From: Escherichia phage vB_EcoM_SQ17
Sequence record: MW882907
DNA length: 64,000 bases
Strand: one strand, 5' to 3'
Shown: positions 45,865-56,304 of the stretch, in pieces
Layout: every line of letters begins with the position of its first letter
Numbering within the stretch: the stretch's first letter is position 1
Program-made: the position numbers and the translations under genes
Notes under the pieces: model-generated
What the model was told of the DNA's origin: nothing
What the model saw: only the letters and a program-made list of their open reading frames with translations
Databases searched by the model: none

Positions 45865-48800
45865 ATGGCCGACATCAAACGTAAGTTCAGAGCCGAAGAC
45901 GGTCTGGACGCCGGTGGCGACAAGATTGTTAACGTAGCATTAGCCGACCGTACAGTAGGTACTGATGGCGTAAACGTTGACTTCCTGGTACAAGAAAACA
46001 CCGTTCAAGTATATGATTCTACGCGTGGATATAACAAAGGATTTGTTGTTCTTTATGACAACCGTTTATATCAAGCAATAAATGATATCGTGTCTCCTTC
46101 CGGGGCATTTAACCTTTTACAATGGCGTGCAGTTCGTACCGATGCACAATGGATAACTGTTGCTTCTGGGACTTATCAACTTTCTTCAGGTGAATCGATT
46201 TCGGTTAACACTGGTGCCGGCAATGATATGGTTTTCACATTGCCAAATACGCCGGTTGACGGTGATACTGTTGTTTTGGCTGATATTGGTGGAAGAACCG
46301 GGACAGTTAAAGTACAGATTAACGCGTCTGTGCAGAGTATTTTAAACTTTAGAGGTGAACAAGTTCGTACAGTTTTAATGACGCGCCCACGTTCACAACT
46401 ATTGTTTGTGTTTAGTAATCGTTTGTGGCAGATGTATATCATTGATTACGGTAAAGAATCAATCACTGTTACACCTGCGGCACCATATCAAGCACAAGCA
46501 AATGATTTTATCGTTCGTCGTTTTACTAGTGCAGCACCAATCAACATTACACTTCCACGTAATGCTAACAATGGTGATATAATCAGCCTAGTCGATTTAG
46601 ATAAATTAAACCCACTGTATCATACAATTGTTAAAACATTTGATGATACAACGTCTATTGGTGAAGTCGGGACTCATATTGCCGAAGGCAGAAATGACTC
46701 TGACACGTTTTTTGTTTTTGATGCTGCAAATAGTTTATGGCGTATATGGGAAGGCGACCAGAAATCGCGTCTTCGTATTATCCGTGCGGATTCAAATATT
46801 CGTCCAAATGAAGAAGTTCTTATTTTTGGCACAAATAACGCTACAGCCGGAACTATTAATCTTACGCTGCCTTCCGGAATTTTGAGTGGTGACACTGTTA
46901 AAATTTCAATGAACTACATGCGTAAAGGCCAAACAGTAAAAATTAAAGCTGCCGAAGGTGATACAATTGCTTCTTCTGTCGCATTACTTCAGTTCCCTAA
47001 ACGTTCCGAATATCCACCTGACGCTCAATGGGTCTCTGTTACTGAACTAGAATTCAATGGCACTACTTCATATGTTCCTGTATTAGAATTAGCGTATATC
47101 GAAGACACCGTTGCTGGTACACGTTATTGGGTTGTTAAACAAAACGTCCCTACGGTAGAACGTGTTGATGCTGGAACTGATGCTACACGAGCTCGTTTAG
47201 GTGTTATTGCTCTTGCTACTCAAGCGCAAGCAAATGTTGATTTAGAGAATACTCCGGCTAAAGAAGTTGCTATTACTCCTGAAACGTTGGCAAATCGTAC
47301 AGCAACTGAAGCTCGACGTGGTATCGCTAAAATTGCTACAACAGCACAAGTTAACCAGAATACCGATTTTGCATTCCAAGACGACTTGATTATTTCTCCT
47401 AAGAAATTGAACGAACGTACAGCAACTGAAACCCGTAGAGGTGTTGCTGAAGTTGCAACACAGGCTGAAACTAATGCTGGAACAGATGACACCACTATTA
47501 TTACTCCTAAGAAATTGGATGCCCGTCAAGGTTCTGAAGTTTTATCCGGTATTGTAAAATACACATCTACGACTGGTACTACAGCTGCTACTATTCGCGG
47601 TAATGCCGGGACTAACGTTTATAACAAAGCCGTAGATAATTTAACTATTTCTCCAAAGGCTCTTGACCAGTATAAAGCTACCCCTACTCAGCAGGGTGCA
47701 GTAATTCTTGCTATTGAAAGTGAAGTTATCGCTGGCGAATCACAAGCCGGTTGGGCTAATGCTGTAGTGACCCCTGAAACTCTGCATAAGAAAACTTCTA
47801 CTGATGGACGTATTGGTTTAATTGAAATTGCTACGCAAGCAGAAACTAACACTGGAACTGATTATACTAGAGCAGTAACGCCTAAGACGTTAAATGATAG
47901 GAAAGCTACGGAAGGATTATCTGGCATAGCCGAAATTGCTACGCAAGTTGAATTTGATACTGGAACTGACGATACTCGTATCTCGACTCCACTGAAAATT
48001 AAAACTCATTTTGATTCTTCTGACCGTACCAGTGTTAATTCTGATTCCGGACTTATTGAAGAAGGAACCTTGTGGAACCATTATACTCTTGATATTTCTA
48101 AAGCAAATGAAACACAACGTGGTACACTTCGCGTAGCGACCCAGGCAGAATCTAATGCAGGAACTTTAGATGATGTTCTTATTACTCCTAAAAAGCTTTT
48201 AGGGACTAAGTCCACTGAAACGTCTGAAGGCGTAATTAAGGTTGCTACTCAGGCTGAAACTGTAACAGGAACTTCTGCTAATACTGCTGTATCACCTAAG
48301 AATTTAAAATGGATTGTTCAATCAGAACCATCATGGACTGCTACTACGGCGATTCGTGGATTCGTTAAAACTTCATCCGGTTCTATTACATTCGTTGGTA
48401 ATGATACGGTTGGTTCAACACAATCTTTAGAATCATATGAGAAAAATAGCTATGCGGTATCACCATATGAATTAAACCGTGTACTTGCTAACTACTTACC
48501 GTTGAAAGCTAAAGCAGCTGATAGTAATTTGTTAGATGGTCTAGATTCTCTTCAGTTCATCCGTAGAGACATCGACCAGACGGTTAATGGTTCTTTAAGT
48601 CTTACTAAACAGACCAACCTGAGTGCTCCTTTAGTATCTACAAGCACTGCTTCTTTTGGTTCCGAAGCATCTGTTACTCGTAGATTAACTCTTAACGATT
48701 CTAGCGGTTCCGAAATAGTTTTCACTAAAGGAACCCAATCTCTTAGTAATAAAGAGAATTTCGTTGTTAGAGCATGGGGTAATAGCGCTACAGATGGTGC

Positions 48801-49698
48801 CCGCGATACAGTATTTGAAGCGGGTGACGAAACAGGATACCATTTCTATTCTCAGCGCGCTGCTGATAATAGAGTATCATTTAATATTAATGGAACACTT
48901 TATTCAACAGGTATTGTTTCTACAAATGGATTAAATGTTACAGGTGTTTCTACCTTTACCGGGCCTATTAGTGCTACAGGCGAAATTGTTTCTAGTTCTC
49001 CTATTGCATTCAGAGCTATTAACGGTAACTATGGTGTTATGCTTTATAATGCTGGTAACAGTTCTTATATTGCATTAACTAACTCAGGTGACCAGACCGG
49101 GACGTTTAATAACTTACGCCCTATCACGATTAACAACGCCACAGGCTTAGTTCGTCTTGACAATGGTGTTCAAATCACGAGTGGTGCAACAATAACTACT
49201 GGTGGGTTAACTGTAAATAACAGAATTATTTCTAACGGCGTTAAAACTGCTACTGTTTATACCGATAAACCAACAGCTTCTACTGTAGGTTTTTGGTCTA
49301 TTGACATTAACGATTCTGCTGTATATAGCCAATTCCCTGGATACTGGACGCGTGATAACAAAGGTAACCGTGACCAAGAAATTAAATATCCTGGTACTTT
49401 GACTCAATTCGGCAATAGCTTAGATTCGCTTTATCAGGATTGGATTTGTTATCCTACAGGTGCAAATGGCGGTAGCATTCGATATACTCGTACCTGGCAG
49501 AAAAATAAAGATGCTTGGACTTCATTTGCAATGGTATTTGATAGTGGCAACCCACCTTCACCTAGCGATGTCGGTGCTATCCCATCTGATAATGCTGTTA
49601 TTGGAAACCTTACTATTCGAGACTTCTTACAATTAGGAAATGTGAGAATTGTTCCAGACCCGGTTAACAAAACAGTTAAATTTATATGGGTTGAATAA
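45865..49698 (+). CDS. 34: Long tail fibre proximal subunit gp34
   Basis: 1277 aa; N-terminus MADIKRKFRAEDGLDAGGDKIVNVALADRTVGTDGVNVDF; internal tandem motif repeats. Confidence 0.9.
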   Translation: MADIKRKFRAEDGLDAGGDKIVNVALADRTVGTDGVNVDFLVQENTVQVYDSTRGYNKGFVVLYDNRLYQAINDIVSPSGAFNLLQWRAVRTDAQWITVASGTYQLSSGESISVNTGAGNDMVFTLPNTPVDGDTVVLADIGGRTGTVKVQINASVQSILNFRGEQVRTVLMTRPRSQLLFVFSNRLWQMYIIDYGKESITVTPAAPYQAQANDFIVRRFTSAAPINITLPRNANNGDIISLVDLDKLNPLYHTIVKTFDDTTSIGEVGTHIAEGRNDSDTFFVFDAANSLWRIWEGDQKSRLRIIRADSNIRPNEEVLIFGTNNATAGTINLTLPSGILSGDTVKISMNYMRKGQTVKIKAAEGDTIASSVALLQFPKRSEYPPDAQWVSVTELEFNGTTSYVPVLELAYIEDTVAGTRYWVVKQNVPTVERVDAGTDATRARLGVIALATQAQANVDLENTPAKEVAITPETLANRTATEARRGIAKIATTAQVNQNTDFAFQDDLIISPKKLNERTATETRRGVAEVATQAETNAGTDDTTIITPKKLDARQGSEVLSGIVKYTSTTGTTAATIRGNAGTNVYNKAVDNLTISPKALDQYKATPTQQGAVILAIESEVIAGESQAGWANAVVTPETLHKKTSTDGRIGLIEIATQAETNTGTDYTRAVTPKTLNDRKATEGLSGIAEIATQVEFDTGTDDTRISTPLKIKTHFDSSDRTSVNSDSGLIEEGTLWNHYTLDISKANETQRGTLRVATQAESNAGTLDDVLITPKKLLGTKSTETSEGVIKVATQAETVTGTSANTAVSPKNLKWIVQSEPSWTATTAIRGFVKTSSGSITFVGNDTVGSTQSLESYEKNSYAVSPYELNRVLANYLPLKAKAADSNLLDGLDSLQFIRRDIDQTVNGSLSLTKQTNLSAPLVSTSTASFGSEASVTRRLTLNDSSGSEIVFTKGTQSLSNKENFVVRAWGNSATDGARDTVFEAGDETGYHFYSQRAADNRVSFNINGTLYSTGIVSTNGLNVTGVSTFTGPISATGEIVSSSPIAFRAINGNYGVMLYNAGNSSYIALTNSGDQTGTFNNLRPITINNATGLVRLDNGVQITSGATITTGGLTVNNRIISNGVKTATVYTDKPTASTVGFWSIDINDSAVYSQFPGYWTRDNKGNRDQEIKYPGTLTQFGNSLDSLYQDWICYPTGANGGSIRYTRTWQKNKDAWTSFAMVFDSGNPPSPSDVGAIPSDNAVIGNLTIRDFLQLGNVRIVPDPVNKTVKFIWVE

Positions 49699-49706
49699 GA
49701 GGTTAT

Positions 49707-50831
49707 ATGGAAAAATTTATGGCAAGGTTTGGACAGGGATACGTCCAAACGCCGTTTTTATCGGAAAGCAATTCAGTTAGATTTAAGCTAAGTATAGCGG
49801 GTTCATGCCCGCTTTCAACAACTAATCCATATATTTTGTTCCAAAACGAGCCTTTAGGGTTGCAGTCTTTTGGTATTGGACTAAATGTTAGGGTGATAAA
49901 TCCGGAAAATGGAACTATAGTTGATAGTAAATTATACAATTTTGCGCCTACAAATAATGCAACTTCAGCTGCATTTATTTCGTTTGTTAATACATACGCA
50001 GATAATTTCATTTTCGCATTTATTTCTAATAACAAATTTAATTTGCCACCAGAAATAATTGAATGGTTTAAAGCTGCTGGGAGTTCAGTTATACCGTCAA
50101 TTGAAGTTGCTAGTCTTGTTGATATTTCATATTCAGCGTTTTATGTTTCAGGTAAAAATACTATTGCATTAGAACACATAAAATACAGTAATAAGAAAAC
50201 AATTTCTGATTACGCAACTCCATTAGATATTGTATATGACTCTATTGCTGATATAGGTGCTACCGGCTATCCTAGACGTACATATGAAGCTCTAGAAACG
50301 TTTTTATCTCCTGTTGGAGGAACTAACAATGAAATAAAAAGGATGCCTACATCATCCCTTGTTACTCCTATCGCAAACTATGGATTAAAGCCTACAGATT
50401 TTCTTTATTTGAAATTTCAATTAATGGCTGATGAAGAATTATTAGAGGAAGGAACCACAAGACTTTCAATTCGTTTCTTTAAGTCTCCATCTAGCTCTCC
50501 TATATCATCTAAAGATATAAACTTTGATGGAACTGCCGGGGAGTGGAAGCTATATGAAGAATACGTTGAAATACCAGCTGAAGCTGATGGCTTTACAGTA
50601 TATTGTTACCGTACGGCCTCAGTCGGTCAAGGTGGACTAAGAAATGTTATTTTCACTGAAGTATCATGTAACGGAAGTATAGCAAAACCCGCCGAGTTTG
50701 GTATAAACGGTATTCGTGCTAATTACATTGATGAATCATTAACCGGTAATGATATAATGGACTTGCCTACTCAGTTATCTAACGACACAGGTAAGGTATT
50801 TGGGCAGGAATTTAAAGAGTACACAGAATAA
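49707..50831 (+). CDS. 35: Long tail fibre hinge connector gp35
   Basis: 374 aa; T4 synteny. Confidence 0.8.
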   Translation: MEKFMARFGQGYVQTPFLSESNSVRFKLSIAGSCPLSTTNPYILFQNEPLGLQSFGIGLNVRVINPENGTIVDSKLYNFAPTNNATSAAFISFVNTYADNFIFAFISNNKFNLPPEIIEWFKAAGSSVIPSIEVASLVDISYSAFYVSGKNTIALEHIKYSNKKTISDYATPLDIVYDSIADIGATGYPRRTYEALETFLSPVGGTNNEIKRMPTSSLVTPIANYGLKPTDFLYLKFQLMADEELLEEGTTRLSIRFFKSPSSSPISSKDINFDGTAGEWKLYEEYVEIPAEADGFTVYCYRTASVGQGGLRNVIFTEVSCNGSIAKPAEFGINGIRANYIDESLTGNDIMDLPTQLSNDTGKVFGQEFKEYTE

Positions 50832-50856: not shown

Positions 50857-50864
50857 TATAAATA
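50857..50864 (+). promoter_or_regulatory. T4 late promoter motif TATAAATA upstream of gene 36
   Basis: Exact TATAAATA 27 nt upstream of the ATG; AAGGAGA ribosome-binding site. Confidence 0.6.
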
Positions 50865-50890: not shown

Positions 50891-51547
50891 ATGGCCGATT
50901 TAAAAGCCGGAAGTACAGTTGGTGGTTCCGTCATATGGCATCAAGGCAATTTTCCTTTAATGCCAGCTGGCGATGACATCCTATATAAAACATTTAAATT
51001 ATACACCGAATATAACAAGCCAAAAGCGGCTGATAACGATTTCGTATCTAAAGCAAATGGTGGGACATATCTCAAAAAGGTAATCTTTAACGAAGGTGTT
51101 GCAGTCAAAACAGCAGATGACCAAACGAATGGTATTTTTTCTGGCGGTGGTGACGCCGCGACATTCGACCAAACAAACATGGATATTGTTTCGTGGTATG
51201 GTGTTGGGTTTAAATCATCTCAAGGTACAGGTGAAAGAACTGTTGTAATTGATACTCGCACTGGTAATATAAGTTCTAAAGGCGTTATTGAAGCATCTCA
51301 ATTCAGAGCCACAACGTTAGCACCTTTAAATAATTACGACCTTACTCGCAAAGATTATGTTGATAGTCAAATAAATACAGTTAATGCTAATGCAAACAGT
51401 CGTGTACTCCGTTCAGGAGATACGATGACTGGCGCGCTAACCGCCCCAAATTTTTTCTCACAGAATCCTGCATCTCAACCATCGCATGTTCCACGATTTG
51501 ACCAAATTGTTATTAAGGATTCTGTTCAAGATTTCGGCTATTATTAA
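50891..51547 (+). CDS. 36: Long tail fibre distal connector gp36
   Basis: 218 aa; T4 synteny. Confidence 0.8.
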   Translation: MADLKAGSTVGGSVIWHQGNFPLMPAGDDILYKTFKLYTEYNKPKAADNDFVSKANGGTYLKKVIFNEGVAVKTADDQTNGIFSGGGDAATFDQTNMDIVSWYGVGFKSSQGTGERTVVIDTRTGNISSKGVIEASQFRATTLAPLNNYDLTRKDYVDSQINTVNANANSRVLRSGDTMTGALTAPNFFSQNPASQPSHVPRFDQIVIKDSVQDFGYY

Positions 51548-51555
51548 GAGGACTT

Positions 51556-54500
51556 ATGGCTACTTTAAAACAAATACAATTTAAAAGAAGCAAAACTGCA
51601 GGAGCACGTCCTGCTGCTTCAGTATTAGCCGAAGGTGAATTGGCTATAAACTTAAAAGACCGTGTACTTTTTACTAAAGATGACCAAGGAAATATTATTG
51701 ATCTGGGTTTTGCTAAGGGTGGTAGTATTGACGGGAATGTTATTCATACTGGCAATTATAACCAAACTGGCGATTATACTTTAAATGGCACCTTCACTCA
51801 GACAGGTAATTTTAATTTAACTGGTATTGCTCGAGTAACTCGCGATATTATTGCCGCCGGGCAGATTATGACCGAAGGCGGAGAAATTATTACAAAAAGT
51901 TCAGGTACATCACATGTTCGTTTTTTCGATGGCAATAACCGCGAACGCGGAATCATTTATGCCCCGGCTAATGATGGATTAACTACACAAGTACTTAATA
52001 TCAGGGTTAAAGACTACGCCGCTGGTAGAGAAAGCACTTATGCATTTTCAGGCAGTGGCCTATTTACTTCACCCGAAGTATCAGCACGGAAATCTATTTC
52101 GTCTCCGCAAATTCTGACCGATAAAGTTATTACAAATGGGAAGAAGACGGGCGATTATGATATATCTTCATTAGCAAATAATAATTCTGACACAGATAAA
52201 AACTATTTGCGCGTTGTACGTACCGACCCAGCGGCCGCAATGCTCCATGAAATTTGCGAAAATAACGGCATCAGTTGGTATTCTGGTTCAACCCCTACTG
52301 ATTACATGCTGTCTTTTGCTTATTCAGGTGGTTTTCAAGCTGGGCATTCGATTGCAGTAGGTATGGAATCAGGGCCTATAACATATTCAGCCTTAGGTAA
52401 AGGTTCTATTGCTATTGGTGATAATGACACCGGGTTAAAATGGCACCAGGACGGATATTTCTATACAGTAAACAACGGGACAAAAACTTTCATCTATGGT
52501 CCAGGAGAAACGCAAAGCCTTAGAAAAATGGTTATGGCTTATTCTCCAGATGGGCTTCTTATGACAACGCCACCGACAGAAAACTATGCATTAGCCACTG
52601 TTGTTACTTACCATGATAATAACGCGTATGGTGACGGTCAAACTCTTTTAGGTTATTATCAGGGCGGTAATTATCATCACTATTTCCGCGGTAAGGGTAC
52701 CACAAACATTAATACTCATGGCGGTTTGTTAGTTACTCCTGGTAATATTGATGTTATTGGCGGTTCTGTTAATATAGATGGTAGAAATAATTCTTCTACA
52801 CTAATGTTTAGAGGCAACACAACAGGATACAGCTCGGTTGATAATATGGATATTAAAGTTTGGGGTAATACGTTTGTTGATCCAAGCGGAGGTATCCGTA
52901 AAAACATTATGGAAATTTCTGATGCAACTAGCTGGATGAGCTATATTCAAAGACTTACTACTGGCGAAGTAGAAATGAACGTTAATGGTTCATTTGAATC
53001 ATCTGGTGTTACTGCTGGAGATAGAGGAGTTCACACAACAGGTGAAATTTCATCTGGAGCAGTGAATGCTCTTCGTATTTGGAACGCAGATTATGGAGCC
53101 ATTTTTAGACGTTCAGAAGGAAGTCTTCATATTATTCCAACTGCTTATGGCGAAGGCAAAGATGGCGATATCGGTCCACTTCGCCCGTTTAGTATGGCTT
53201 TAGACACCGGTAAAGTTACTATTCCAGATTTACAATCAAGTTATAATACGTTTGCTGCTAACGGTTATATTAAATTTACTGGTCATGGCGCAGGCGCTGG
53301 TGGTTATGACATTCAATATGCTCAAGCGGCTCCTATTTTCCAGGAAATTGATGATGATGCTATAAGCAAATATTATCCTATTGTTAAACAGAAGTTTTTA
53401 AATGGTAAAGCCGTTTGGTCTTTAGGTACTGAGATTAGTTCAGGTACATTCGTTATTCATCATCTGAAAGAAGATGGTTCACAAGGCCATACGTCTCGTT
53501 TTAATCAAGACGGTACTGTTAACTTCCCGGATAATGTTCTGGTCGACGGTGATATTAACATGAAAGGCGTGATGACTTTTGACGCCGGACGTTTAGGATC
53601 ACGAGATTATTTTAAATTTAACCATTGGGGTGATAGTAATAATGCTCGTGATAACATCATCCAGTTAGAAGATAGTCAAGGCGCTCATTTTTCCACTGAA
53701 CGTACTTTAGCGACAGGTGCAATTAAAACTCGTTTCTTTGGCGAAACATTTACTGATGGTACATTATACCTAAATCAGATGAATAATAGCTCTGAACGAT
53801 TCCATATCAATAATTTGGGAAATTCAGAAGCTGGTCGCGCGGCAGTGATGGAAGTCGGTGATTCCAAAGGTTATCACTTCTATACAGAACGCAGGACAGA
53901 TAACAGTTTGACGTTTGATGTTGCTGGCACTTTTACCGTGCATGGATCTAGCGGGATCACTATCAAAAACTCTGCTGGTGCTCGCCACATCTGGTTTAAA
54001 GATGATAGCGAATCGGAAAAGGCTGTTATCTGGGCTACAGATGAGGGTATTTTACATATACGAAATAATTATGGGGGTTCATTTAGTCATCACTTCCAGG
54101 GTGCAATGATTCTAGCGGGAGAGCGTGTTCCGTATAATAGTGAATACGCTCTTATCCGTGGTAATATTTCCGGTGGTGCATGGGTAGACTGGCGAGATCG
54201 TCCGGCTGGATTGTTGGTAGACTGTCAGGACTCACGAACTCAAGCATATAACATTTGGAAAGCTACTCATTGGGGCGAACAGCACCTTGCGGCGATGGGT
54301 GTTCATGCTGGCGGTGGTAATCCTCATGTTGTATTGCATGTGGGTGGGAATGATTATGCATTTGCATCTAACGGTGATTTTACTGCTGGTGCTGCTGTAT
54401 ATTGTAACGACGTTTATATTCGTTCTGACCGTCGTCTGAAAATTAATGTTGAAGACTACGAAGAGAATGCGGTGGATAAGGTAAATAAACTCAAAGTTAA

Positions 54501-54777
54501 AACCTATGATAAAGTTAAATCTCTTTCTGACCGCGAAGTTATCGGCCATGAGATTGGTATTATCGCACAGGATTTGCAAGAAGTATTACCGGAAGCTGTT
54601 AGCACTTCTAGTGTCGGATCTCAGGATAACCCAGAAGAAATTTTAACAATTTCAAACTCTGCTGTGAACGCGCTTTTAATTAAGGCCATTCAGGAAATGA
54701 GCGAAGAAATTAAAGAATTGAAAACGCCTCTCTTTACTAAAATTGCTCGCAAAATTAGTAAATATTTTAAATTCTAA
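51556..54777 (+). CDS. 37: Long tail fibre distal subunit gp37 with C-terminal intramolecular-chaperone module
   Basis: 1073 aa; conserved N-terminus; C-terminal ...YIRSDRRLKINVEDYEENAVDKVNKL... resembles auto-cleaving chaperone domains. Confidence 0.9.
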   Translation: MATLKQIQFKRSKTAGARPAASVLAEGELAINLKDRVLFTKDDQGNIIDLGFAKGGSIDGNVIHTGNYNQTGDYTLNGTFTQTGNFNLTGIARVTRDIIAAGQIMTEGGEIITKSSGTSHVRFFDGNNRERGIIYAPANDGLTTQVLNIRVKDYAAGRESTYAFSGSGLFTSPEVSARKSISSPQILTDKVITNGKKTGDYDISSLANNNSDTDKNYLRVVRTDPAAAMLHEICENNGISWYSGSTPTDYMLSFAYSGGFQAGHSIAVGMESGPITYSALGKGSIAIGDNDTGLKWHQDGYFYTVNNGTKTFIYGPGETQSLRKMVMAYSPDGLLMTTPPTENYALATVVTYHDNNAYGDGQTLLGYYQGGNYHHYFRGKGTTNINTHGGLLVTPGNIDVIGGSVNIDGRNNSSTLMFRGNTTGYSSVDNMDIKVWGNTFVDPSGGIRKNIMEISDATSWMSYIQRLTTGEVEMNVNGSFESSGVTAGDRGVHTTGEISSGAVNALRIWNADYGAIFRRSEGSLHIIPTAYGEGKDGDIGPLRPFSMALDTGKVTIPDLQSSYNTFAANGYIKFTGHGAGAGGYDIQYAQAAPIFQEIDDDAISKYYPIVKQKFLNGKAVWSLGTEISSGTFVIHHLKEDGSQGHTSRFNQDGTVNFPDNVLVDGDINMKGVMTFDAGRLGSRDYFKFNHWGDSNNARDNIIQLEDSQGAHFSTERTLATGAIKTRFFGETFTDGTLYLNQMNNSSERFHINNLGNSEAGRAAVMEVGDSKGYHFYTERRTDNSLTFDVAGTFTVHGSSGITIKNSAGARHIWFKDDSESEKAVIWATDEGILHIRNNYGGSFSHHFQGAMILAGERVPYNSEYALIRGNISGGAWVDWRDRPAGLLVDCQDSRTQAYNIWKATHWGEQHLAAMGVHAGGGNPHVVLHVGGNDYAFASNGDFTAGAAVYCNDVYIRSDRRLKINVEDYEENAVDKVNKLKVKTYDKVKSLSDREVIGHEIGIIAQDLQEVLPEAVSTSSVGSQDNPEEILTISNSAVNALLIKAIQEMSEEIKELKTPLFTKIARKISKYFKF

Positions 54778-54782
54778 CAACA

Positions 54783-54800
54783 AGGGGGAAATGCCCCCTT
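54783..54800 (+). terminator. Hairpin aagggggaaatgccccctt between genes 37 and 38 (attenuator or stability element)
   Basis: GC stem-loop; gene 38 ribosome-binding site (GGAG) follows. Confidence 0.45.
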
Positions 54801-54813
54801 TGGAGTATAAATT

Positions 54814-55599
54814 ATGGCAGTAGTTGGAGTTCCTGGCTGGATTGGAAGTTCAGCCGTAAATGAAACGGGTCAGCGCTGGATGAGTCAAGCAGCTGGTCAA
54901 TTAAGATTGGGTGTTCCTTGCTGGATGAGTCAATTTGCAGGTCGCTCAAGAGAAATTATTCATACACTTGGAGCAGACCATAACTTCAATGGTCAATGGT
55001 TCCGAGATAGATGTTTTGAGGCAGGTAGTGCACCTATAGTGTTTAATATCACCGGAAATTTAGTATCATATAGTAAAGATGTTCCTTTATTCTTTATGTA
55101 CGGCGATACGCCAAATGAATATGTTACTTTGAATATTCATGGTGGAGTTCATATGTGGGGACGAGGTGGTAACGGTACTGTAAACGGAAACCCAGGCACA
55201 AATGGCGGCGATGTAATCCAAAATGATATCGGCGGAAGACTTCGTATTTGGAACTATGGCGTTATTGCATCAGGTGGCGGCGGTGGTGGTGCAGTGTCAT
55301 TACGGAATAGCTGGGCGCCAAATGCTACAGCAGGTGGCGGTGGTGGTAGACCATTTGGCATCGGCGGTGGCGGCGTTAATTGGCCTGGTGGTAATGCTAG
55401 TTATGACTCCCCTGGCGGTGCCGGTTACACTTCCCAATTCGGCGGTGGCAATGGCGGTGATGCTGGAGGTCGTGGCGGAGATGGATGGGGTAATCACTTA
55501 TCTAGATCTAGATCTGGTGGTGGTGCTCCTGGCAGAGCAGTATTCGGAAGTTCACCGTCATGGGGTGCTACAGGCACAATCTACGGCTCCTGGATTTAA
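54814..55599 (+). CDS. 38: Receptor-recognising adhesin gp38 (T2-type, glycine-rich motifs)
   Basis: 261 aa; conserved N-terminal part then several poly-Gly runs ([44 protein letters not shown]) separated by short variable segments. Confidence 0.8.
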
Positions 55600-55617
55600 A
55601 CGATAATACCTCTCAAT

Positions 55618-55644: not shown

Positions 55645-56304
55645 ATGGCAGCACCAAAAGTATCATTTTCGCCTAGTGATATTTTATTTGGGTTGCTAGA
55701 CCGCATTTTCAAAGATAACGCCTCTGGAAATATTCTTATTTCAAGAGTTGCTGTTGTAGTTCTTTTGTTCCTAATGGCACTAATATGGTACAAAGGGAAT
55801 ATTTTTATGGATTATTACGTGAGGTCGAAATATGATACTTACACAGAAGTAATTCAAAAAGAAAGAAATACACGATTTGAATCTGCGGCTTTAGAGCAAC
55901 TACAAATAGTCCACGTCACATCAAGGGCGGATTTTAGTTCGGTGTATTCTTTCAGACCTAAAAATCTAAATTATTTCGTCGACCTTATTGCGTATGAAGG
56001 TAAGTTACCTAGCACAGTAACTGAAAAATCTATGGGAGGATTTCCTGTTGATAAAACGACAGCAGAATATTCGGTCCATTTAAGTGGACTTCACTTTACT
56101 TCTAAAACAGATTTTGCTTTCTTACCTACCAAATCAAAAACTCCGGAACTGGCGTATATGTATAGTTGTCCTTACTTCAATTTGGATAACATATATGCGG
56201 GAACTGTTTCTATGTATTGGTATAAGGGGTCGGATGTGTTAAATGAAGAACGCTTGGCTGCAATATGCAACCAAGCAGCAAGGATATTAGGGCGGGCTAA
56301 ATAA
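55645..56304 (+). CDS. t: Holin T
   Basis: 219 aa from MAAPKVSFSPSDILFGLLDRIFKDN... (ORF-track start trimmed to the ATG after GGAGG); single N-terminal transmembrane segment. Confidence 0.85.
   Translation: MAAPKVSFSPSDILFGLLDRIFKDNASGNILISRVAVVVLLFLMALIWYKGNIFMDYYVRSKYDTYTEVIQKERNTRFESAALEQLQIVHVTSRADFSSVYSFRPKNLNYFVDLIAYEGKLPSTVTEKSMGGFPVDKTTAEYSVHLSGLHFTSKTDFAFLPTKSKTPELAYMYSCPYFNLDNIYAGTVSMYWYKGSDVLNEERLAAICNQAARILGRAK

Follow-up and report, generated by a model that had tools for sequence, protein, structure and literature searches.

The fibre-tip module of Escherichia phage vB_EcoM_SQ17: a predicted self-cleaving chaperone domain on gp37 and a T2-type gp38 adhesin that most likely recognises OmpF

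The 64,000-nucleotide stretch of DNA analysed here in its entirety (hereinafter the window) comes from Escherichia phage vB_EcoM_SQ17 (SQ17; GenBank: MW882907), a Mosigvirus isolated on O157:H7 and put forward for biocontrol in food, with a host range reported to be broad and to include O157:H7 and enterotoxigenic Escherichia coli (ETEC). It contains on its + strand a T-even long-tail-fibre operon with the gene order gp34-gp35-gp36-gp37-gp38-t, and we concentrate on the distal end of this operon, where a first-pass annotation made from the letters alone had placed, between 54424 and 55599, a T2-type receptor-binding module composed of the C-terminal end of gp37 and the adhesin gp38. The principal features of this module are the following:

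51556-54777, + strand: gene 37, coding for the precursor of the long-tail-fibre distal subunit (1073 aa, 116.7 kDa; open reading frame; identical to public record QVW29393.1)
54409-54423, + strand: DVYIR, gp37 residues 952-956, the predicted last strand of mature gp37 and docking tip for gp38 (from alignment)
54424-54774, + strand: C-terminal intramolecular chaperone or Peptidase_S74 domain, gp37 residues 957-1073 (117 aa, 13.2 kDa; Pfam PF13884 and PDB profile matches)
54814-55599, + strand: gene 38, coding for the T2-type fibre-tip adhesin (261 aa, 26.6 kDa; open reading frame, Pfam matches and PDB homologues; identical to public record QVW29394.1)
54814-54939, + strand: gp38 N-terminal attachment domain, residues 1-42, with Trp9, Trp22 and Trp37 (Pfam PF21721)

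Both ends of the interval held up, since the Ser957 codon of gp37 opens exactly at base 54424 and 55599 marks the stop codon of gp38. From Ser957 onward the tail of gp37 (SDRRLKINVEDYEEN...) runs for 117 aa at the extreme C-terminus of this distal fibre subunit, and at its residues 957-1015 Pfam recognises the family Peptidase_S74 (PF13884, 'chaperone of endosialidase'), with positions 1-57 of the 58-position model covered, an E-value of 1.3e-14 and a score of 54.6 bits (cut-off, 22). Ten tails of T2-type gp37 proteins were aligned, and a profile built from a six-sequence subset of these recovered from the PDB the S16 gp37 (6F45_A, 3e-47), the ICA domain of MYRF (7dc3, 7e-10), the phage tail fibre 8jov (3e-7) and the chaperone domain of the GA-1 neck appendage (3gud, 9e-4). 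The tail opens with S957-D-R-R-L-K962, which fits the S-D-x-R-x-K start motif and stands in register with SDERHK in GA-1, SDERLK in 8jov and ADLRAK in MYRF 7dc3; the Ser, Asp, Arg and Lys of the motif are invariant in the six-sequence alignment, and the 3gud chain starts at the motif Ser, corresponding to the released product. In Peptidase S74 domains the Ser acts as the nucleophile and the Lys as the general base; by analogy, Ser957 and Lys962 are predicted to take these respective roles in the SQ17 domain. The Pfam and PDB matches and the aligned Ser and Lys thus bear out the earlier suggestion that gp37 ends in an additional module of about 117 aa of the auto-proteolytic chaperone type, and, at the level of sequence, they place it within the auto-cleaving intramolecular-chaperone family itself, beyond mere similarity.

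The residues preceding the motif bear on the predicted position of the cut. A (D/N)VY(I/V)R strand immediately upstream is present in nine of the ten aligned T2-type gp37 proteins, even where the shaft upstream of it is unrelated, the tenth being S16 with DLNVS. Cleavage is predicted after Arg956; its products would be a 956-aa mature gp37 (103.5 kDa) and a fragment of 13.2 kDa. This agrees with what has been described in relatives: the last 113 residues of S16 gp37 autocleave at DLNVS^SDRRIKK, for fPS-2/fPS-90 an alignment with the S16 sequence led to the proposal of a cut at DVYIR^SDGRLKI (PMC7917993), and the gp37 of T2/T6 undergoes C-terminal proteolytic cleavage followed by capping by gp38 (PMC3157838, citing Drexler 1986). 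Elsewhere in gp37, residues 414-557 (52795-53226) show homology to gp34, the proximal fibre protein, in its C-terminal trimerisation domain (Pfam PF21446; about 1e-11 to 1e-12 for PDB 4uxe and 5nxf), and modules are therefore shared between the two half-fibres.

The second component, gp38, is covered over nearly its whole length by two Pfam families, namely Gp38_N (PF21721; residues 1-42, E=1.4e-20) and GP38 (PF05268; residues 47-261, E=1.2e-81, model positions 1-218 of 218), and the E-values obtained for gp37 and gp38 confirm that these matches lie far beyond chance. In the PDB, gp38 recovered the receptor-binding domain of a GFP-gp38 fusion (9V85; 1e-73, 64% identity), which we assigned to phage PP01 by tblastn (100% identity) and by its paper, and the S16 gp38 (6F45_D; 1.5e-47), both matches covering essentially the whole protein. 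Within the N-terminal domain Trp9, Trp22 and Trp37 are invariant in an alignment of 12 adhesins from five receptor classes, S16 included; in the S16 structure, as summarised in PMC7917993, such tryptophans are the prongs by which gp38 docks on gp37. The remainder is dominated by glycine, with 65 Gly in the 261 residues and a share of 35% in residues 116-261, where the runs GGGGGG (154-159), GGGGG (174-178) and GGGG (184-187) occur together with several of GG/GGG; these counts agree with the first-pass description of a 261-aa protein with poly-glycine runs split by short segments. The glycine motifs (116-121, 128-132, 154-159, 174-178, 182-185, 212-221 and 240) are invariant across the 12 adhesins and, compared at the sequence level, align without register shift to both crystallised adhesins. 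We take the 64% identity to a crystal structure to settle the predicted fold of gp38 as a polyglycine-II sandwich. Because of the high Gly content, the local GC of the Gly-rich part of gene 38 rises to 0.55, against 0.38 for the whole window. Two alternative-frame open reading frames in this half of the gene (55223-55606, + strand, 127 aa; 55300-55497, - strand, 65 aa) were rejected as genes on account of the stop-poor, GGN-rich composition there.

Comparisons with T4 delimit the class to which this tip belongs. The N-terminal 636 aa of gp37 align to T4 gp37, but the alignment stops at residue 636, with only scattered low-scoring pieces beyond it, and a PDB search with the full gp37 returned fragments of S16 gp37 and gp34 only, the T4 gp37 tip structure being absent. 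A BLASTP comparison of gp38 with the T4 gp38 chaperone found no similarity (best E=2.0), and the T4 RefSeq note itself describes the 'gp38' of the T2 subfamily as an unrelated adhesin. The sequence evidence supports gp38 as a full-length T2-type adhesin unrelated to the T4 gp38 chaperone, and the first-pass assignment to the T2-like rather than the T4 class stands. In GenBank, QVW29394.1 carries the product name 'long tail fiber assembly catalyst', and many related records are named 'assembly chaperone'. Judged from these sequence comparisons, the 'assembly catalyst' label is a mis-annotation propagated from the unrelated T4 gp38.

To map the receptor-binding surface of gp38 we transferred the boundaries of the receptor loops A-E from the PP01 structure 9V85. 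The mapped segments, together with a short duplication that lies in the last of them, are the following:

55177-55194, + strand: loop A, gp38 residues 122-127, TVNGNP (mapped from PP01 loop A, W119-I124)
55300-55329, + strand: loop B, gp38 residues 163-172, carrying Q164R (CGG vs CAG) (PP01 mapping)
55369-55383, + strand: loop C, gp38 residues 186-190, GGVNW (PP01 mapping)
55426-55440, + strand: loop D, gp38 residues 205-209, YTSQF (PP01 mapping)
55486-55512, + strand: loop E, gp38 residues 225-233, WGNHLSRSR (mapped from PP01 loop E, N225-S231)
55501-55512, + strand: 6-nt tandem duplication TCTAGA-TCTAGA, inserting Ser-Arg in frame into loop E (SRSR vs SR in relatives; from comparison with Bas46, which reads ...HLSRSGGG)

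The five loops are the least conserved columns of the gp38 alignment across receptor classes. The segments between the glycine runs, which the first-pass annotation had held to be variable and related to host range, thus coincide with the receptor loops of PP01. That annotation had also proposed aligning gp38 to adhesins of known specificity, and the alignment gave the following identities and associated receptors:

Bas46 (ChristianSchoenbein), 99%: OmpF (BASEL table S5)
fPS-2, 98%: OmpF and lipopolysaccharide (LPS) (PMC7917993)
FL33, 98%: OmpF (PMC12032242)
Bas47 (AlbertHofmann), 94%: OmpF, complemented (BASEL)
T6, 69%: Tsx (PMC3157838)
Bas35, 68%: Tsx (BASEL)
PP01, 64%: OmpC
AR1, 64%
T2, 52%: FadL/OmpF (BASEL; PMC3157838)
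S16, 49%: OmpC (after the title of Marti 2013, as cited by PMC7917993)
Bas45, 49%: OmpA (BASEL)

The identity to T6 and Bas35 lies mostly in the N-terminal part. The closest match is to the OmpF class, with 94-99% identity to four members that were shown experimentally to depend on OmpF (Bas46, Bas47, fPS-2 and FL33), to all of which loops A, C and D are identical. Moreover, gp38 shares a 90% cluster with the proteins of RB51, FL31 and phiC120, and RB51, like RB69, requires OmpF (PMC3157838). Since the receptor-binding part is 94-99% identical to the adhesins of four OmpF-dependent phages, and given the identical loops A, C and D and the presence of RB51 in the same cluster, OmpF is the most likely primary receptor predicted for gp38, and the LPS core probably plays a part in binding as well.

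The remaining two loops carry changes private to SQ17. Relative to Bas46, gene 38 shows 19 synonymous and 3 non-synonymous codon differences, the latter being Q164R, L183I and A199S, a ratio that points to purifying selection. Q164R is unique in comparison with 17 aligned relatives, T2 having Lys at this position. As for the TCTAGA duplication, a blastn search with 76 nt against 50,697 phage records found 73 matching records, all 73 of which span 70 nt and lack the duplication, and it is not present in the 13 other members of the 90% cluster of gp38. A duplication-spanning 23-mer likewise found no match in GTDB genomes and a single match in JGI metagenomes, on an unrelated contig without a gp38-like open reading frame; it had no match in IMG/VR, a scan that is uninformative in view of the near absence of the subgroup from that collection, where an 18-mer control matched once. 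Changes of one or two residues in the variable segments are known to alter receptor use, as in SV76 compared with T2 and PST compared with T6 (Trojet 2011, PMC3157838). It is conceivable, though we regard it as doubtful, that Q164R and the loop-E duplication are adaptive host-range mutations that retune an OmpF-class adhesin to the OmpF variants or LPS context of O157:H7/ETEC. If true, they could help explain the reported broad host range of SQ17, and the pair SQ17/Bas46 would offer a natural minimal system for mapping loop length against porin-allele specificity in a polyglycine-II adhesin.

We read the locus as the distal fibre-tip module of an RB69-like Mosigvirus, a T-even phage of the T2 type, consisting of a gp37 predicted to be cleaved and a gp38 adhesin with OmpF as its most likely receptor, and assign this reading as a whole a probability of roughly 0.88. 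In the mechanism that we envisage, gp37 would be made as a precursor of 1073 aa, the last 117 residues of which would aid the trimerisation and folding of the three chains. Ser957, activated by Lys962, would then cut the Arg956-Ser957 bond, and the 13-kDa fragment would depart, thereby exposing a flat tip ending in ...DVYIR. On this tip a single gp38 monomer would dock through its N-terminal domain with Trp9, Trp22 and Trp37 and so be carried by the virion, its C-terminal polyglycine-II sandwich projecting the five loops A-E towards the receptor; by the SQ17 allele this receptor, as we infer, would be bound as OmpF.

Several points weigh against this interpretation. Of the five receptor loops, B (through Q164R) and E (through the Ser-Arg insertion) are unlike those of every characterised OmpF binder, and in PP01 it is loop E that governs specificity, while loop B may contact LPS (PMC12892980). 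OmpF dependence within this adhesin group is sometimes partial, or goes together with a role of FhuA, of the LPS core or, apparently, of TolC: both FhuA and a full LPS core are further requirements of RB69/RB51 (PMC3157838), FL31 is reduced by only 1 log on an ompF mutant, and FL31/FL33/FL34 also respond to tolC (PMC12032242). In the paper describing SQ17 the fibre analysis is confined to the short tail fibre, and no primary receptor is given. On the structural side, AlphaFold2 run on the single sequence of gp38 gave an unusable model (mean predicted local distance difference test score, pLDDT, 31.8; predicted template-modelling score, pTM, 0.20). Given the differences in loops B and E, membership of gp38 in the OmpF class is a strong prediction, short of certainty.

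The same two loops are the basis of the alternative that gp38, while a T2-type adhesin, has through Q164R and the loop-E insertion acquired another or an additional primary receptor, such as the OmpC of O157, FadL or an LPS sugar. Both changes fall in mapped receptor loops, they are unique among the sequences checked (73 records and 13 cluster members for the duplication; 17 relatives for Q164R), and in PP01 loop E governs specificity and loop B may contact LPS; furthermore, the receptor switches of SV76 and PST came from comparably small changes, and the host range of SQ17 is described as broad, O157:H7 and ETEC included. Yet three loops and the entire scaffold are the same as in OmpF binders, the insertion merely repeats existing residues (SR to SRSR), T2 with its Lys at the position of Arg164 is itself an OmpF user, and phiC120, a relative without these changes, also infects O157:H7. 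We therefore hold a different or additional primary receptor to be unlikely.

Two further alternatives concern the proteins themselves. Were gp38, as in T4, an assembly chaperone outside the virion, with gp37 itself binding the receptor, the GenBank product name of QVW29394.1 and of several related records would be correct; this is barely credible against the BLASTP result with T4 gp38, the homology along its entire length to adhesins with solved structures at the tip of the fibre, a gp37 that has no T4-type C-terminal tip and recovers no such tip structure from the PDB, and the explicit statement in the T4 RefSeq note. That the C-terminal domain of gp37 instead stays on the mature fibre, where it would serve in structure or in receptor binding, draws on cleavage of the SQ17 protein being a prediction and on the consideration that certain domains related to Peptidase_S74 might in principle lack activity. 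In SQ17, though, the S-D-x-R-x-K motif is preserved in its spacing and in its catalytic Ser and Lys, which do not vary in the alignments, the domain is identical in amino acids to that of Bas46 with changes that are synonymous only, the T2 and S16 homologues of gp37 are processed (PMC3157838, PMC7917993), and docking of gp38 requires an exposed tip (PMC7917993), which renders retention of the domain highly improbable. Cleavage of gp37 and capping by a gp38 directed at OmpF remain the preferred account.

The characterised systems illustrate how far each part of the module is shared. Bas46 (MZ501056), an OmpF-dependent Mosigvirus, has the same gene order, lengths and loops A, C and D, with 95% amino acid identity in gp37, 100% in the chaperone domain (2 synonymous differences) and 99% in gp38, but SQ17 departs from it by Q164R, L183I and A199S and by the two residues inserted into loop E. 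Yersinia phages fPS-2/fPS-90 and Escherichia phages FL33/FL34, which use OmpF and the LPS core, share the gp38 (98% in fPS-2 and FL33) and the DVYIR^SD.RLK junction; unlike SQ17, the shaft and tip of the fPS-2 gp37 upstream of DVYIR differ, and the fPS/FL phages have Tequatrovirus backbones. Such near-identical modules on Tequatrovirus backbones imply that the receptor-binding module is mosaic across genera. PP01 gp38 (9V85), which binds the OmpC of O157, was the source of the loop A-E definition and matches at 64% identity and 1e-73, whereas the sequences of all five loops differ and it is paired with another chaperone-domain subtype. Salmonella phage S16 (6F45; OmpC) provides the post-trimerisation cleavage of the chaperone, the Trp-prong docking and the β-helix and polyglycine-II sandwich, features established in S16 and ascribed to SQ17 from sequence, but it is more distant (49% in gp38, 30% in the gp37 tail) and has different loops and receptor. 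T2 (FadL/OmpF), the founding example, has recognisably related loops B (SLKNSYPTNGS) and E (GWGKNVYTS) but is 52% identical overall; its N-terminal attachment domain belongs to another subtype, and its chaperone subtype is shorter, at 99 aa. Beyond T-even phages, the Peptidase S74 chaperone domains of endosialidase, the GA-1 neck appendage and MYRF share the S-D-x-R-x-K start motif and the profile match, while their passenger domains are unrelated and the sequence similarity is distant. T4, for its part, corresponds in locus position and has a homologous gp37 N-terminus and shaft, in contrast to an unrelated gp38 and a gp37 with its own receptor-binding tip and no S74 domain.

The mosaicism extends to the interior of the module. 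In megablast searches the match to RB32, RB33 and others takes in the chaperone domain and gp38 codons 1 to about 110-119, stopping at the first Gly-rich motif; with fPS-2, G2540 and EO1 it extends from within the chaperone domain through the end of gene 38; and with many other relatives it begins at the start codon of gene 38. The similarity breakpoints thus lie inside the chaperone domain, at the start of gene 38 and at the first Gly-rich motif (gp38 residues 110-119). In addition, three chaperone-domain subtypes of gp37 co-occur with three N-terminal subtypes of gp38, which, along with the breakpoints, indicates that the chaperone domain and the gp38 N-terminus form one exchange unit, apart from the receptor-binding part. 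As judged from these alignments, the pattern fits the view in the literature that the Gly-rich motifs act as joints for recombination (PMC12032242, PMC3157838) and adds nothing new to it. The same holds for the T2-type tip module at large, which is well-described biology: with two crystal structures, near-identical characterised relatives, a published cleavage-site prediction and a public genome, the module is an ordinary one and adds nothing new to the field.

Its value is practical more than conceptual, and no open question of phage biology rests on the locus. For SQ17 as a biocontrol phage, a tip of the OmpF class predicts that resistance would arise mainly through mutations in the LPS core and through ompF being lost or down-regulated, and shows which phages to avoid combining with it in a cocktail. 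The reading of gp38 also corrects the 'assembly catalyst' label in the database, and the loop-E duplication is a small, cleanly testable case of adhesin-loop variation.

The module is embedded in the following neighbourhood:

45865-49698, + strand: gp34 (open reading frame, long-tail-fibre operon)
49707-50831, + strand: gp35, hinge protein (open reading frame, long-tail-fibre operon)
50857-50864, + strand: T4-type late promoter TATAAATA, an exact copy upstream of gene 36
50891-51547, + strand: gp36 (open reading frame, Pfam-confirmed)
54783-54800, + strand: stem-loop in the spacer between genes 37 and 38 (AAGGGGG-AAAT-GCCCCCTT; fold -18.6 kcal/mol, z=-2.3)
55645-56304, + strand (mechanical open reading frame from 55633): holin t (Pfam Phage_holin_T, E=5.6e-89)

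The order of gene 37 with its chaperone domain, gene 38 and holin t is the same in Bas46, T2, S16 and PP01. The true start of holin t is probably the ATG at 55645, as a strong GGGAGG ribosome-binding site precedes it and it fits the 660-nt holin annotated in Bas46. A pattern search for TATAAATA found 15 sites against 6.9 expected, with exact late promoters also before gene 34 (45827) and t (55618). The copy at 50857 is the sole exact one upstream of genes 36, 37 and 38, and these are therefore probably co-transcribed from it as one late transcript. Scans of the locus for sigma-70 promoters (18 vs 14.1 in shuffles) and terminators (6 vs 3.4 in shuffles) gave no excess.

The stem-loop at 54783-54800 lies directly 5′ of the Shine-Dalgarno GGAG of gene 38. 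A hairpin is found in this spacer in eight relatives with differing stem sequences, equivalents occurring in Bas47, fPS-2, T2, T6, PP01 and S16, often with a loop of the UUCG type, and three of the six consensus pairs show compensatory change. Hairpins that stabilise mRNA or tune translation have long been known in the intercistronic regions of T4, and the conserved spacer hairpin may be an element of this kind. Upstream in the operon, gp35 has a Pfam match to the ILEI/FAM3 domain (residues 58-131; 30.2 bits against a cut-off of 27), which we take to be the known 'GG domain' common to phage gp35 and the eukaryotic FAM3/POMGnT1 proteins.

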